64,000 bases of DNA. Source: Vicinamibacterales bacterium. Lineage in GTDB: Bacteria > Acidobacteriota > Vicinamibacteria > Vicinamibacterales > UBA8438. Below are positions 8,560-14,154 of the stretch, piece by piece; the stretch's first letter is position 1; every line of letters starts with the position of its first letter. The stretch is from assembly GCA_965243615.1 (NCBI GenBank), contig CBDEVO010000003.1:4058471-4122470 (forward strand), in the 5' to 3' direction. The translations under genes were made by a program, and so were the position numbers. The notes under the pieces were generated by a model. That model was not told the origin of the DNA. It searched no databases and was given only the letters and a program-made list of their open reading frames with translations.

Positions 8560-9764
8560 GACAGGACCGTCCCGAGTTGCAGGAGGGGCAGGTACAGGGC
8601 GACGAGGAGGGCGGCGATGACGAGCCCCATCACGATCAGCAGCACCGGCTCGATCACGGCCACGAAGCGCCCGAGCCGGGTCTCGATCTCCTCGTCGAAG
8701 AAGTCGGCGACGCTCGTCAGCATCTCGCGCAGGGCCCCCGTCGCCTCGCCCACCTCGACCATCCGGACGACGACCGACGGGAAGATCCCCCGCGCGGCCA
8801 GCGCCGCGGCCAGCGCCTCGCCCTCGCGGACCCGCTGCCCGACGACCGCGAGCTGTTCCGCGTAGAACCGGTTGCCGAGGGCGCGCGCCGCCACGTCGAT
8901 GGCGTCGACCAGGGGTATCCCGCCGCCGAGGAGGGTGGCCAGGGTGCGCGACAGTTGTGAGGTCGCGAACCGGCTCGCGATCGAGCCGACGCCCGGAAGC
9001 CGCAGGACCAGCCGGTCGAGCAGCGCCGCCCGGCCCGGCCGCTGCAGCCAGCGCCAGGCCGCCCAACCCGCGAGCCCGGCGCCCGGGACGACGAGCAGAA
9101 GGTTGCTCCTCGCCGCGTCCGACACCGCGACCACGAGGCGGGTCATCAGCGGCAGCTCGGCCCCGAACCCGCCGTAGAACGCCTCGAACTCCGGCACCAC
9201 CCGAAGGATGATGATGGACACCACGACGAGCGAGAGGCCCAGCAGGATCACCGGGTAGATCAGCGCGGAGAGGGTCTTGCGTTGCAGGGCGGTGACCACC
9301 TTGACGTAGTCGACGTAGCGCCGGATGACCTCCTCGAGGCCCCCGCTCTTCTCCCCCGCCAGCAGCGAGGCGGTGTACACGCCGGGGACGAGCTCGCCCT
9401 GCGCGTCGAACGCCTCCGAGAGCGACGCGCCGGCGTGAACGCGGTCGTGGACGTCGTTCAGGACGGCCTTGAAGCCGGGATCGTCCATGCGCTGGCGCAG
9501 GATGTCGAGCGACTGCACGAGGGGTAGCCCCGCCCGCAGGAGCGTCGCCAGCTCCTGGTTGAAGACCAGGAACTCCCGGGTCCTGATGCGCCGGCGGGGC
9601 GCCGGCGAGAAGCCGGACCAGGCGAACGAGCCGCGGCGGCTGAGGGCGAGGACGTGGAGGCCCTTGGCCGCCAGCTCCTGTCGGAGGGCCGCCTCGCTCT
9701 CGGCGACGTGCACGCCCTCGATGACCTCGCCGGTCTCGTTGCCGAGTCTGCAGTGGAACTCCAT
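8556..9764 (-). CDS. gspF: GspF/PilC-family polytopic platform protein
   Basis: It contains two GspF repeats (FNQELATLLRAGLPLVQSL...; LSRTLATLLGGGIPLVDAI...) and a C-terminal TM, LLVALYLPLLQLG. The start is set at ATG 9762-9764 (MEFHCRL). Confidence 0.9.
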   Translation of the reverse strand: MEFHCRLGNETGEVIEGVHVAESEAALRQELAAKGLHVLALSRRGSFAWSGFSPAPRRRIRTREFLVFNQELATLLRAGLPLVQSLDILRQRMDDPGFKAVLNDVHDRVHAGASLSEAFDAQGELVPGVYTASLLAGEKSGGLEEVIRRYVDYVKVVTALQRKTLSALIYPVILLGLSLVVVSIIILRVVPEFEAFYGGFGAELPLMTRLVVAVSDAARSNLLLVVPGAGLAGWAAWRWLQRPGRAALLDRLVLRLPGVGSIASRFATSQLSRTLATLLGGGIPLVDAIDVAARALGNRFYAEQLAVVGQRVREGEALAAALAARGIFPSVVVRMVEVGEATGALREMLTSVADFFDEEIETRLGRFVAVIEPVLLIVMGLVIAALLVALYLPLLQLGTVLS

Positions 9765-9930
9765 GCGTCGGGGCCCGCGCCGCCGGGACGTGCACCGCGC
9801 CTCCGGCCTGCCCGACGCGATTCTAGCAGTCCGCGGCCCTCCGCGCCACGGCATCCGCGGTGCGCGCGCGGTTGCCGCATGTTTCACGGCATGTTAGAGT
9901 TGCGCCGTTTTCGCACGCACGGGAATCGAC

Positions 9931-10024
9931 CCTCCGGCAGTCCGCGCCGCAAACGGCGCGGACTGCCGGAGGGTTGGTTGGGCGCCCAGGGGAACCGAAA
10001 GCGACGAAGGGCGGACCGACTCGG
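9931..10024 (+). repeat. Dispersed intergenic repeat, copy A (best-preserved)
   Basis: It starts with a perfect 19-bp inverted repeat, CCTCCGGCAGTCCGCGCCG-caaa-CGGCGCGGACTGCCGGAGG (9931-9972). This is followed by GTTGGTTGGGCGCC...GAACCGAAAGCGACGAAGGGCGG. Confidence 0.8.
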
Positions 10025-10054
10025 ATGCCACGCACACGGCGGAGAACGACGGCG

Positions 10055-10339
10055 ATGTCTCTCGAAGCGCTCGGCATGGTGGAAACCAAGGGCCTCGTCG
10101 GCTCGATCGAGGCGGCCGACGCCATGGTCAAGGCCGCCAACGTGCTGCTCGTCGGCAAGGAGTACATCGGCGCCGGCTACGTGACCGTCTTCGTCCGGGG
10201 CGACGTCGGCGCCGTCAAGGCCGCCACCGACGCCGGCGCCGCCGCCGCCCGGCGGGTCGGCGAGCTCGTGGCCGTCCACGTCATCCCGCGCCCCCACGGC
10301 GAGGTGGAGAAGATCCTGCCGCAGGAGCCCGCGCCGTAG
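10055..10339 (+). CDS. Bacterial microcompartment shell protein, BMC-H (PduA/EutM/CcmK type)
   Basis: The translation [30 protein letters not shown]...[37 protein letters not shown] is a near-textbook BMC domain. A GGAGAA Shine-Dalgarno lies 8 nt upstream of ATG 10055. Confidence 0.95.
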
Positions 10340-10416
10340 AACGGCGCGGACTGCTGGAGGGTTGGTTGGGCGCCGAGCGGAGCCGTCAGGCGACGATGGG
10401 CGGGCCAAGTCCGCGA
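10321..10416 (+). repeat. Dispersed intergenic repeat, copy B
   Basis: The sequence is GCGCCGtagaACGGCGCGGACTGCTGGAGGGTTGGTTGGGCGCCGAGCGGAGCCGTCAGGCGACGATGGGCGGGCC. The left hairpin arm overlaps the last codons and stop of the BMC-H gene. Confidence 0.8.
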
Positions 10417-10539
10417 CGCCAAGTGATCGACCCACCGCGCATCCGGCCATGGCTGATCGGGCCCTCCTGAACGGCACGGACCTCGGGTCGAGTCCCGACT
10501 CGCGCACGCCCGGCGCCCGGCCCCCCGGCGCGTCCCGCC

Positions 10540-12339
10540 ATGGCTGACAGCCCCCCCCGCATCGACTCGGACCTCGACTCGATACGCGAGGCGCGGCAGC
10601 TCGCCCGGCGGGCCCGCGACGCCCAGACGCGCCTCGCCGAGCTGACCCAGGAGCAGGTGGACGGCATGGTCGGCGCCGCCGCCGCGGCCGCCGCCACCCA
10701 GGCCGCGCCGTTCGCCCGGATGGCGGTGGAGGAGACCGGCTACGGCAACGAGGCGGACAAGGTCCGCAAGAACCTGTTCGCGGCCGAGACTATTCACCGG
10801 TTCATCGAGCCCATGCGCACCGTCGGCGTCATCCGGCGCCTCGAGGCCGAGCGCGTCGTCGAGATCGCCGAGCCGTTCGGGGTCGTCGCCGCGGTGGTGC
10901 CGTCGACCAACCCCACCTCCACCGCGATCTACAAGATCCTGGTCTGCCTGAAGGCGCGGTGCGCGGTGGTCCTGAGCCCGCATCCCGCCGCCGCCCGGTG
11001 CGTGCGACGGGTCGCCGAGGTGATGACCGCGGCCGCCGTCGACGCGGGCATGCCCGACGACGCGGTCACCTGCATGACGACCGTGACCCTCGAGGGCACG
11101 CAGGAGCTGATGCGGCGCCGCGAGGTCGCCGTCATCCTCGCCACCGGGGGCCTCGGCCTCGTCCGCGCCGCCTACAGCGCGGGGAAGCCGGCCTACGGAG
11201 TCGGGCCCGGCAACGCCCCCGCGTACATCGAACGGACGGCGGACCTGCCCAAGGCGGTGGCCGACATCATCACCGGGAAGACCTTCGACAACGGGCTGCT
11301 CTGCTCGTCGGAGAACTCCGTGGTGGTCGACGAGGCGGTGGCCGGGGAGGCGCGCCGCGAGTTCGAGCGGCAGGGCGGCTACTTCCTGAACGCGAGCGAG
11401 GCCGACCGCCTCGCCGGCGCCCTCGTCACCGCCGACCGCCTGCCCAGCCCGGAGCTGGTCGGCCGTACCGCGGCGGAGATCGCGGCCCGCACCGGTATCG
11501 ACGCGCCGGCGGGGACCCGGGTCCTCGTCGCCCCCCTCGAGGGGGTGGGGCGCGACCACCCCCTGTCGATCGAGAAGCTCTGTCCGGTCCTCTCGTTCTA
11601 CGTCGTCGCCGACTGGCGGGCGGGCTGCGAGCGGTGCATGGAGATCCTGCGCTACGGCGGGATGGGTCACACCATGGCCATCCACTCGCAGGACGAGCAG
11701 GTGATCCTCGAGTTCGGCCTCCGCAAGCCCGCCTTCCGCATCGTCGTCAACACCCCGACGACCCTCGGCTCGATCGGCATGACGACGGGGCTCGACCCCT
11801 CGATGACCCTCGGCTGCGGCGGGCACGGCGGCAACATCACCTCGGACAACATCACCCCGCGGCACCTGCTGAACGTCAAGCGCCTGGCCTGGGAGGTGCG
11901 CCCTGCCGACCGGCCTTCGCCGGAGCGGACCGACGCCGCCGCCCCTTCTCCGGCTACCCCGGCCGCCGGGCGGCCGCGCCCCAGGAGGCTCGACCCCGGA
12001 CTACTCTCCCGCCGAATCGACACGTTCCTCGCCTCGCGGGGCGTCGGCACGGCTCCGCCCTCCGCGGCGGCAGGGCCCCCCGCCCCGGCCGCGGCCCCGG
12101 CGGGGGCGGCCCCGGCGGACGACCCGAGCCCGGCGCCCCCCACTCCCCCCGCCGCATCGACGGCGCCGGCCCGGGTCGACGCGCCGACCGGGCAGAGCGC
12201 CGCCGTCGAGTTCGTCTGCGAGGACGACGTCCGCCAGGCGGTGGAGGTCGGCCGGCGCATCGCCGTCGACGAACGCACGATCATCACCCCCGCCGCCCGC
12301 GACCTCGGAGAGCGGCACGGGGTCTTCGTGGAGGCCTGA
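10540..12339 (+). CDS. CoA-acylating aldehyde dehydrogenase (PduP/EutE-like) with a ~146-aa C-terminal extension
   Basis: The ALDH core reads VVPSTNPTST, GGLGLVRAAYSAGKPAYGVGPGNAP and the catalytic-Cys context FDNGLLCSSENSVVV. From about nt 11899 there is a Pro/Ala-rich linker. The protein ends with AAVEFVCEDDVRQAVEVGRRIAVDERTIITPAARDLGERHGVFVEA. Confidence 0.9.
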   Translation: MADSPPRIDSDLDSIREARQLARRARDAQTRLAELTQEQVDGMVGAAAAAAATQAAPFARMAVEETGYGNEADKVRKNLFAAETIHRFIEPMRTVGVIRRLEAERVVEIAEPFGVVAAVVPSTNPTSTAIYKILVCLKARCAVVLSPHPAAARCVRRVAEVMTAAAVDAGMPDDAVTCMTTVTLEGTQELMRRREVAVILATGGLGLVRAAYSAGKPAYGVGPGNAPAYIERTADLPKAVADIITGKTFDNGLLCSSENSVVVDEAVAGEARREFERQGGYFLNASEADRLAGALVTADRLPSPELVGRTAAEIAARTGIDAPAGTRVLVAPLEGVGRDHPLSIEKLCPVLSFYVVADWRAGCERCMEILRYGGMGHTMAIHSQDEQVILEFGLRKPAFRIVVNTPTTLGSIGMTTGLDPSMTLGCGGHGGNITSDNITPRHLLNVKRLAWEVRPADRPSPERTDAAAPSPATPAAGRPRPRRLDPGLLSRRIDTFLASRGVGTAPPSAAAGPPAPAAAPAGAAPADDPSPAPPTPPAASTAPARVDAPTGQSAAVEFVCEDDVRQAVEVGRRIAVDERTIITPAARDLGERHGVFVEA

Positions 12340-12639
12340 ACCGGCGCGAACCGTCGACTCCCGGCCGGCGGCTTCCGTGGCGGGGCGCCCCCGCCATCGG
12401 TCTTCCGTTCGGCACGGCCGTGCCCGGGGCCGCCGGCGTGCAGAGGAGGCGCTCGCGGCCGCGAGCGTCGGGGACACCGCTCCCGGCCGCCGGCACGGCC
12501 AGGACGCCCGGGGCAGTGCCGCGCACTTCCTGCGATCAGGCGCCCCCGCGCTCCCGTTCGGTTCCTGCACCCCCAATCCGGGGCAAGCGCCCGCAAGCAG
12601 CGCTCAGGCGCCGGCAGTCTTCTTGCAACCAGACCCGCC

Positions 12640-14154
12640 GTGCTCGCCATCGTGCAAAGCGCGGCCGTGTTCGGCATCGAGGCGCATCCCGTCCGGGTCG
12701 AGGTCGACGTCTCGGACGGCGGGTTGCCGACGACCGTCCTCGTCGGCCTGCCCGACGCCAGCGTGCGCGAGAGCCGCGAGCGTATCGACAGCGCCATCCG
12801 CAACTCCGGCATCGAGTTCCAGAAGCGGCGAGTGACGGTCAACCTCTCGCCCGCGGACATGCGAAAGGTGGGCTCGGCATTCGATCTGCCGATCGCCCTC
12901 GGCATGCTCGCCGCCGCCGGTCTCGTTCCGAGGGACCGGCTCGACCGGACGCTGATCGTCGGCGAGCTTTCTCTCGACGGCGCGGTCCGGCCGGTGCGGG
13001 GGCTCCTCCCGATCGCGGCCCAAGCCGCGCGGGACGGAATCGAACGCCTGGTGGCGCCCGACGCCAACGCCGGCGAGGCGGCCATCGTCGGCGGCCTCGG
13101 GGTGCTGCCCGTGGCTACGCTCGAAGAGGCCGTCGCGGTCCTGGCGGGGCGATCCGGCCGGACCGCGGAGCCGGGGCCGCGTCCCGCCCCCGCCGTCCCC
13201 CCGGCGCCGGACCTCGCCGACGTGCGGGGACAAGCGTTGGCCCGCCGGGCGCTGGAGATAGCCGCCGCCGGAGGCCACAACCTGATCTTCATCGGGCCGC
13301 CGGGGGCCGGCAAGAGCATGCTCGCCCGGCGGCTGCCGGGCATCCTGCCCGCGTTGACGACGCACGAGGCCCTCGAGGTGACCACCATCCACTCGGTGGC
13401 GGGGCTGCTGCCGCCGGGCGGCGGGCTCGTGACCACCCCGCCCTTCCGTGCTCCCCACCACACCGCGTCGGACGTCGCGCTCGCCGGCGGCGGCGCGATC
13501 CCCCGGCCCGGCGAGATCAGCCTCGCCCACAACGGCGTCCTCCTCCTCGACGAGGCGGCGGAGTTCGCCCGCCACGTCCTCGACGCCCTGCGCCAGCCCC
13601 TCGAGGAGGGTGCGGTGCAGGTGGCCCGCGCGGCGCGATCGACGGTCTTCCCGGCCCGCTTTCTGCTCGTCGCCACCACGAATCCCTGCATCTGCGGCTA
13701 CCTCGGGGAGCCGACCCGCCCGTGCCGCTGTTCCCCGCGCCAGATCGCGCGCTATCGGAGCCGGCTCTCGGGACCGTTGCTCGACCGCATCGACCTGAGC
13801 GTCCGGGTGCCGGCGGTGCCCTTCAGCGCGCTGACCGGGACCGAGCCCGGCGAGGCGTCGGCGCCGGTGCGCCGGCGGGTCGCGGCCGCGCGCGAGGCGC
13901 AGCGGGCGCGGAACCGGTGTCAGGACGGAGCCCCGGTGAACGCCCGCCTGCACGGTCGCGCCCTCTCCCGGCACTGCGCCCTCGACGCGGCCGGGCTCCG
14001 GATCCTCGACGCGGCCAGCCGCCGGTTTCGTCTCAGCGCCCGGAGCTGCCACCGGTTGATGAAGGTGGCGCGCACGATTGCCGACCTTGCGGGCGATGAG
14101 ACGATCGCGGCCGAGCATCTCGCGGAAGCGGTACAGTTCAGGCTCGACGAGTGA
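12640..14154 (+). CDS. comM: YifB/ComM family Mg-chelatase-like AAA+ ATPase
   Basis: The N-terminus is MLAIVQSAAVFGIEAHPVRVEVDVS.GGLP...VGLPD and the Walker A is LIFIGPPGAGKSMLARR. The zinc-ribbon-like segment is NPCICGYLGEPTRPCRCSP. It uses a GTG start. Confidence 0.95.
   Translation: MLAIVQSAAVFGIEAHPVRVEVDVSDGGLPTTVLVGLPDASVRESRERIDSAIRNSGIEFQKRRVTVNLSPADMRKVGSAFDLPIALGMLAAAGLVPRDRLDRTLIVGELSLDGAVRPVRGLLPIAAQAARDGIERLVAPDANAGEAAIVGGLGVLPVATLEEAVAVLAGRSGRTAEPGPRPAPAVPPAPDLADVRGQALARRALEIAAAGGHNLIFIGPPGAGKSMLARRLPGILPALTTHEALEVTTIHSVAGLLPPGGGLVTTPPFRAPHHTASDVALAGGGAIPRPGEISLAHNGVLLLDEAAEFARHVLDALRQPLEEGAVQVARAARSTVFPARFLLVATTNPCICGYLGEPTRPCRCSPRQIARYRSRLSGPLLDRIDLSVRVPAVPFSALTGTEPGEASAPVRRRVAAAREAQRARNRCQDGAPVNARLHGRALSRHCALDAAGLRILDAASRRFRLSARSCHRLMKVARTIADLAGDETIAAEHLAEAVQFRLDE

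Follow-up and report, generated by a model that had tools for sequence, protein, structure and literature searches.

Among the bacterial microcompartment (BMC) types catalogued by Sutter, Melnicki, Schulz, Woyke, and Kerfeld (2021, Nat Commun 12:3809, PMC8217296), the ACI type comprises 125 loci, which were found exclusively in Acidobacteria and mainly in subdivisions 4 and 6. Its main locus encodes an aldolase whose C-terminus carries an encapsulation peptide (EP), along with a hydroxyacid dehydrogenase, a BMC-P triplet, a BMC-H protein, and a small protein with three Cys residues (PMC8217296). The aldehyde dehydrogenase (AldDh) is encoded in a satellite locus. It has an EP "close to the C-terminus", after which comes a domain of unknown function of ~50 amino acids (aa), and a BMC-H gene sometimes accompanies this AldDh gene (PMC8217296, Supplementary Data 2). 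In our literature search, no paper characterizing ACI was found after this catalogue. Here, we describe a BMC-H/AldDh gene pair in a 64-kb stretch of DNA (the window) from a Vicinamibacterales bacterium. The window corresponds to C3:4058471-4122470 (C3 stands for contig CBDEVO010000003.1) in a genome of 6.75 Mb with 71% G+C. The pair is an obligate satellite of an ACI-type microcompartment (metabolosome), and this type of locus, including its odd AldDh tail, is already catalogued and not new. The new point is a plausible link, drawn from sequence comparisons, between the terminal domain of the AldDh tail and the termini of EutQ, EutT, PduM, and TIGR02536 proteins, which have so far not been recognized as one family.

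Two proteins of better studied microcompartments are relevant to this link. EutQ of Salmonella contacts the shell through H1/H2 (residues 9-41), which bind at EutM/EutL, and H3/H4 bind the EPs of cargo proteins (Sci Adv 2025, PMC12487888). Nuclear magnetic resonance (NMR) data showed no part for H1/H2 in EP binding. The flexible stretch that separates H1/H2 from H3/H4 is needed for shell-core coupling (PMC12487888). PduM has an N-terminal EP and a body needed for shell-core coupling, and it is said to lack homologues in systems other than Pdu (PMC12108088).

Results

The BMC-H/AldDh pair is an obligate satellite of a main BMC locus

Both genes of the pair lie on the plus strand of the window. 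The first one (10055-10339) encodes a BMC-H hexamer shell protein of 94 aa (PF00936, E 4e-28; 129.8 bits with the EutM model), in which the facet interface motifs KAAN and PRPH can be seen. The second one (10540-12339) encodes a CoA-acylating AldDh of 599 aa with a long tail. Profile matches, to a canonical BMC-H and an acylating AldDh, confirmed the assignments and positions that had been proposed in an initial annotation made from the window alone. That annotation considered the pair to be either a satellite of a main BMC locus elsewhere or a minimal two-gene system, and called it stand-alone. In agreement with the latter description, no other BMC-H or BMC-P gene was found in the 64-kb window.

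A scan of the whole genome revealed exactly two BMC-H and three BMC-P genes. Four of these five genes cluster at C3:221105-222476, in a main microcompartment locus (C3:220065-223438) located 3.85 Mb from the satellite pair. The main operon is on the minus strand, with the gene order 91-aa protein, class II aldolase, BMC-H, three BMC-P, and 2-hydroxyacid dehydrogenase. The 91-aa protein, encoded upstream of the aldolase (C3:223466-223741), has a hydrophobic N-terminal helix and exactly three Cys residues in a weakly YHS/TRASH-like C-terminus (PF04945, E 4e-5). The aldolase (294 aa; PF00596, E 1e-48) has an extension of ~70 aa ending in the amphipathic helix EVRLTYRELTALIADAVTQLR, which is a C-terminal EP. 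The main-locus BMC-H gene (C3:222183-222476; PF00936) is adjoined by the BMC-P triplet (C3:221105-222165; three PF03319 genes), and the gene for the 2-hydroxyacid dehydrogenase (324 aa; PF02826, E 2e-54; PF00389, E 4e-30) is directly downstream of the triplet. The satellite and main-locus BMC-H proteins are 81% identical.

The main locus contains no AldDh gene, and a search of the genome for AldDh paralogues at E<=1e-3 retrieved none, showing that the satellite AldDh is the only one of its type. Thus, the satellite is obligate, in agreement with what Sutter et al. (2021) state for ACI, and the two loci are complementary. These results decide between the two options given above. The BMC-P triplet, the second BMC-H, and the EP-tagged aldolase at the main locus show that the satellite option was right and refute the minimal two-gene system, and the term stand-alone holds locally, within the window, but not genome-wide. 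The initial annotation had named a main locus with its own AldDh as the result that would speak against it; the main locus found here is without one.

The locus matches the ACI type in every component

A comparison with published BMC locus classifications, which the initial annotation had suggested, showed that the locus fits the ACI type of Sutter et al. (2021): this genome matches every component, main and satellite. An acidobacterial host is typical of ACI, and nearly all of the 80 loci closest to ours come from metagenome-assembled genomes with titles naming Vicinamibacterales, Vicinamibacteria, or Acidobacteriota (90% identity for the best match). In the main locus, we found the pfam00596 aldolase with its C-terminal EP (helix EVRLTYRELTALIADAVTQLR), the pfam00389/02826 hydroxyacid dehydrogenase, and the BMC-P triplet adjacent to a BMC-H gene, in accordance with the triplet and the one or more BMC-H proteins with standard interface motifs expected for ACI. 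The ~80-aa ACI protein with an EP-like N-terminal helix and three conserved Cys residues has its counterpart in the 91-aa open reading frame with three Cys residues. In the satellite, the EP and the subsequent ~50-aa domain of the ACI AldDh correspond to a helix at residues 484-501 and a folded domain at residues 554-599.

Two differences from the ACI type were noted. In this genome, the satellite BMC-H gene has a dispersed palindromic repeat inserted on either side, and there is neither a PduS/PduT pair nor a fourth BMC-P. Otherwise, nothing substantive differs. The initial annotation implied that the pair and its tail are novel. This novelty is absent, because the 2021 catalogue already records both the pair and a tail with an EP and a terminal domain.

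The combination of an aldolase with a BMC-P triplet had also suggested a microcompartment of the PVM type (Planctomycetes/Verrucomicrobia). This candidate was ruled out by the acidobacterial relatives, the lack of PduL, and the exact fit to ACI.

The gene pair is conserved across the order

Relatives were collected in a scan of one genome per species, which yielded 80 loci with full-length AldDh relatives (61-90% identity). In 78 of them, a BMC-H gene (83-100% identical) directly precedes the AldDh gene in the same orientation; in the remaining two, the locus is at a contig end. The neighboring genes gspF and comM are both present in 46 of the 80 loci, and at least one of the two is present in 73. 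This context is so widely kept that the satellite position is old. A BMC-H gene and the BMC-P triplet were found in all sampled relatives (26/26, from 11 genera), and in closed genomes among the relatives the two BMC-H genes are megabases apart. Across the order, both the gene pair and the architecture of the tail are conserved.

The tight conservation of the pair as a unit, along with a 64-kb window devoid of other BMC genes, could also be expected of an autonomous two-gene microcompartment or scaffold, for example BMC-H sheets or tubes decorated with AldDh. We consider this extremely improbable. Elsewhere in this genome and in those of all 26 sampled relatives, there are the BMC-P triplet, another BMC-H, and cargo with an EP tag. 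Further, the main locus is without AldDh, so the loci are complementary, and the published ACI definition also splits the AldDh onto a satellite locus.

In one metagenome-assembled genome of the Vicinamibacterales (CBDDJQ01, contigs 8 and 12), the BMC-H/AldDh pair occurs three times: two copies lie towards the two ends of a single contig, and the third lies where a contig begins. The copies look more like a duplication produced by the assembly than like real paralogues.

The AldDh tail contains an EP-like helix and a folded terminal domain

The AldDh tail consists of a flexible linker, a conserved amphipathic helix, a second flexible linker, and a folded domain of 46 aa, all encoded on the plus strand. 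Linker 1 (residues 456-483; 11905-11988) is variable and Pro/Ala-rich, with an identity to homologues of 0.22 and a pLDDT of <50 at residues 458-480. It is followed by the EP-like amphipathic helix LDPGLLSRRIDTFLASRG (residues 484-501; 11989-12042), which forms a conserved island (identity 0.56). In this helix, F496 and L497 are invariant, and conservation is 90% or higher at L489, R492, R500, and G501. Linker 2 (residues 502-553; 12043-12198), also variable and Pro/Ala-rich, contains many indels (identity 0.21-0.29, gaps up to 48%, pLDDT <50 at residues 504-550). The tail ends with the 46-aa mini-domain (residues 554-599; 12199-12339 including the stop codon), where the identity rises to 0.64-0.71. 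When the full-length alignment was used, AlphaFold2 predicted a helix at residues 486-499, two disordered linkers, and a folded C-terminal unit.

The initial annotation had described a Pro/Ala linker with a C-terminal module serving encapsulation. The idea of encapsulation stands in broad terms, but the parts have to be reassigned. The conserved amphipathic helix at residues 484-501 indicates that this linker hides a canonical EP, with the 46-aa module as a further, folded domain.

Residues F558, E561, D563, V564, A567, T583, P584, and A586 of the terminal domain are invariant, and Cys560 is at least 90% conserved. We also ran the structure prediction that had been proposed for the module. Modeled alone with AlphaFold2, it gave a confident fold (mean pLDDT 91.5) with the topology beta-alpha-beta-beta-alpha-beta.

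The terminal domain is probably related to the shell-binding region of EutQ

Neither the module nor the whole tail matched a family in Pfam scans, and searches of Protein Data Bank (PDB) sequences with the module, as a single sequence and as a profile, retrieved nothing meaningful, only de novo mini-proteins. A second copy of the module was not found in this genome. An HMMER scan of 1.84 billion representative proteins gave 486 module matches. The best 150 consist almost entirely of AldDh tails or pieces of such tails, including more distant ones such as that of a protein from Bryobacteraceae. A few odd N-termini among these best 150 look like chimeric or frameshifted metagenome calls.

When 76 module sequences were scanned against 18,950 NCBIfam models, matches to a small set of microcompartment families were obtained. 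TIGR02536 ("eut_hyp") was matched by 75/76 sequences at model positions 157-204 of 207 (best E 6.6e-6). EutQ was matched by 28/76 (positions 5-40 of 233; best E 0.0065), the PduM family TIGR04493 by 22/76 (positions 114-151 of 153; best E 0.0045), and PduM NF011957 by 8/76 (positions 133-156 of 162 in the one member shown; best E 0.016). Three of the 76 matched EutT (positions 3-45 of 267; best E 0.022). The only match outside BMC proteins was to the unrelated QEGLA family (1/76; best E 0.12). Though each of these matches is weak, all BMC matches fall on the termini of microcompartment proteins, and chance is therefore no explanation.

Further comparisons pointed to the N-terminus of EutQ. Residues 1-50 of Escherichia coli EutQ match the same TIGR02536 positions as the module. 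Using hhalign, the 76-sequence module profile was aligned to residues 5-42 of E. coli K-12 EutQ (E 2e-4, probability 46%). The search for EutQ homologues gave only sequences at least 88% identical to the E. coli protein and thus no diverse EutQ N-terminal profile. In a six-frame search of the whole E. coli K-12 chromosome, the profile matched a single place, at the 5' end of eutQ (E 0.057). When the 16 Eut proteins were compared with the module profile, EutQ scored at residues 8-39 and EutT at residues 15-42, and none of the others scored. In the JGI pipeline, fragments of the module of 43 aa are annotated as "ethanolamine utilization cobalamin adenosyltransferase" (EutT).

The EutQ H1/H2 region and the module have a similar length and the common pattern h-h-x-E/N-D-V/I-R-x-A ... 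I-I-T-P-x-A-R-D/E. Both have two helices, are located at a protein terminus, and adjoin a flexible linker. In contrast, the EutQ region is N-terminal and fused to the EP-binding helix pair and a cupin acetate kinase, whereas the module is located C-terminally on an EP-bearing AldDh. In addition, the similarity is weak, with 33% identity over 36 columns. PduM and the TIGR02536 proteins are short microcompartment proteins with C-terminal ~40 residues that match the module, and PduM, like the AldDh tail, pairs an EP with a module-like domain. Unlike the AldDh, however, PduM and TIGR02536 proteins are small stand-alone proteins with no enzyme attached.

The N-terminus of E. coli K-12 EutT (residues 1-45, MKDFITEAWLRANHTLSEGAEIHLPADSRLTPSARELLESRH; eutT is on the minus strand) has the module pattern in common with the EutQ N-terminus. 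This suggests that EutT also carries a putative shell-association domain. In our literature search, no paper stating that the EutT N-terminus carries such a domain was found.

Several results weigh against the proposed kinship. A Foldseek search of PDB with the module model gave a best hit with E 1.6 and thus no similar solved structure, so that the kinship must be judged from weak but highly specific sequence signals. The individual matches to EutQ, PduM, and EutT are marginal (E 0.005-0.1), and the hhalign probability is the modest value given above. Moreover, the reverse search of this genome with the single sequence of E. coli EutQ 1-50 retrieved nothing, showing that the kinship is not reciprocal at the single-sequence level. 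Weighing these points against the specificity of the matches, we regard homology between the terminal domain and the N-terminal H1/H2 region of EutQ as probable.

The AldDh tail may tether cargo to the shell

The tail combines a core-directed peptide, a flexible spacer, and a domain resembling EutQ H1/H2, and we therefore propose the AldDh as a core enzyme and a shell-cargo tether in one. In our assessment, the chances are about even that the tail tethers cargo to the shell through binding of the terminal domain to the shell. Such a role would correspond to that of EutQ in Eut compartments and of PduM/PduB in Pdu compartments. As a candidate partner of the domain, the conserved BMC-H encoded alongside the AldDh is the obvious choice.

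Alternatively, the terminal domain could drive association between cargo proteins, either by oligomerization of the AldDh or through interaction with the EPs of the aldolase and other cargo, and could thereby nucleate the enzymatic core with no binding to the shell. This would be in line with the EP-binding part (H3/H4) that the EutQ N-terminal region also has, with the localization of PduM to the core, and with the position of the terminal domain, which is always beside an EP on a flexible tether. However, the match falls on EutQ residues 5-42, that is, on the shell-binding H1/H2, which according to the NMR data does not bind EPs. We regard pure cargo association as unlikely.

The predicted beta-alpha-beta-beta-alpha-beta topology and the conserved Cys560 (at least 90%) raise another alternative, in which the domain would be a regulatory or ligand-sensing unit (ACT-like, or a redox sensor using Cys560) that tunes the AldDh and has no targeting function. 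This is very unlikely. At the position equivalent to Cys560, EutQ has a Thr in the hhalign alignment, and in a visual alignment the EutT motif reads FITE. The ~100 disordered residues between the domain and the catalytic core would be unusual for an allosteric domain, and the sequence relatives, without exception, are end regions of microcompartment proteins whose catalytic parts are unrelated.

Returning to shell tethering, a broader version of this proposal is that the terminal domain is a portable shell-docking domain common to EutQ H1/H2, the EutT N-terminus, the PduM C-terminus, and the TIGR02536 C-terminus, and that the AldDh carries a core peptide and a shell anchor on one tail. We put this forward tentatively, leaning slightly to the side of doubt.

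AldDh catalytic core, flanking genes, and dispersed repeat

The catalytic core of the AldDh comprises residues 1-455 (10540-11904, plus strand) and matches TIGR02518 over residues 9-456 (E 1e-171) and PF00171 (E 2e-23). The TIGR02518 score of 572 bits is below the curated cut-off of 620.1 bits. The score was 513 bits with the N-terminal half of AdhE and only 233 bits with PRK15398, the PduP/EutE-type model. The catalytic Cys255 (11302-11304) is invariant in 76 homologues, and column identity in the core ranges from 0.55 to 0.96 across 80 homologues. The first ~10 residues are poorly conserved (identity 0.55, with gaps). A C8 homopolymer is present at 10551-10558 (AldDh codons 4-7).

The enzyme had been annotated as a PduP/EutE-like CoA-acylating AldDh. 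Its sequence places it among acylating AldDhs, with scores far higher for the AdhE-N and TIGR02518 models than for the PduP/EutE-type model. Metabolosome AldDhs of the PduP, EutE, and TIGR02518 types share with this enzyme the catalytic Cys and, by prediction, targeting by an amphipathic EP, and the same chemistry (aldehyde + CoA + NAD+ -> acyl-CoA) is expected from the sequence. While PduP and EutE have a short N-terminal EP and nothing else, the ACI AldDh described here has a C-terminal EP and an extra folded domain. It is nearer to the AdhE-N/TIGR02518 branch, yet scores under the TIGR02518 cut-off.

The pair is flanked upstream by GspE/GspF genes (T2SSE, T2SSF) on the minus strand and downstream by the gene for ComM (Mg_chelatase family, ATPase), in line with the pilus/secretion operon and comM flanks given in the initial annotation. 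A promoter/terminator consensus scan of positions 9700-12700 yielded zero sites.

As also annotated, a dispersed repeat flanks the BMC-H gene on both sides, in two direct copies that we found at 9954 and 10342. The upstream copy (9921-9987, no strand assigned) is palindromic and REP-like, with a 20-bp perfect inverted repeat and the tail TTGGTTGGGCGCC; its predicted RNA fold has -60.7 kcal/mol (z -8.1). The second copy (10342-10374, likewise without strand) comprises the right arm only, with one mismatch to the core, and forms a weak hairpin (z -1.8). It abuts the BMC-H stop codon and is located within the BMC-H/AldDh spacer. This spacer is 200 nucleotides (nt) long here, compared to 12-60 nt in most relatives, the half-copy of the repeat accounting for the lengthening. 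The 33-nt repeat core occurs genome-wide in 63 copies at <=4 mismatches, and further copies in the window are at ~22826 and ~62871. The dispersed repeat is not part of the microcompartment function.

Discussion

Based on the gene content of the two loci, we infer a pathway that leads from the aldolase to the AldDh, with recycling of NADH by the hydroxyacid dehydrogenase. The aldolase, as the aldehyde-generating signature enzyme, would cleave a sugar phosphate inside the shell and release an aldehyde. The AldDh would convert this aldehyde to acyl-CoA with NAD+, and the hydroxyacid dehydrogenase probably recycles the NADH. The amphipathic helix at residues 484-501 would act as a canonical EP that brings the AldDh into the cargo core, while the terminal domain would dock on a shell facet, possibly on the co-encoded BMC-H.

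One result is not covered by this scheme. A search of the whole genome for a PduL-type phosphotransacylase (PF06130), to which control genomes respond, found none. The canonical CoA-recycling step is thus not accounted for. With this point included, we consider the explanation as an ACI satellite highly probable as a whole, the individual workings having the strengths given above.

The locus itself is a further instance of a catalogued, uncharacterized microcompartment type that soil Acidobacteria very commonly possess. If the terminal domain is indeed a shell-binding unit shared with EutQ, EutT, PduM, and TIGR02536 proteins, this would explain the domain left unknown in the 2021 catalogue and would suggest a testable role for PduM and for the N-terminus of EutT. 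It would also point to a second, widespread targeting device beside the amphipathic EP. Moreover, it would provide a compact 45-residue tag, distinct from EPs, for anchoring proteins to microcompartment shells, and it would make the ACI compartment easier to reconstitute and study.

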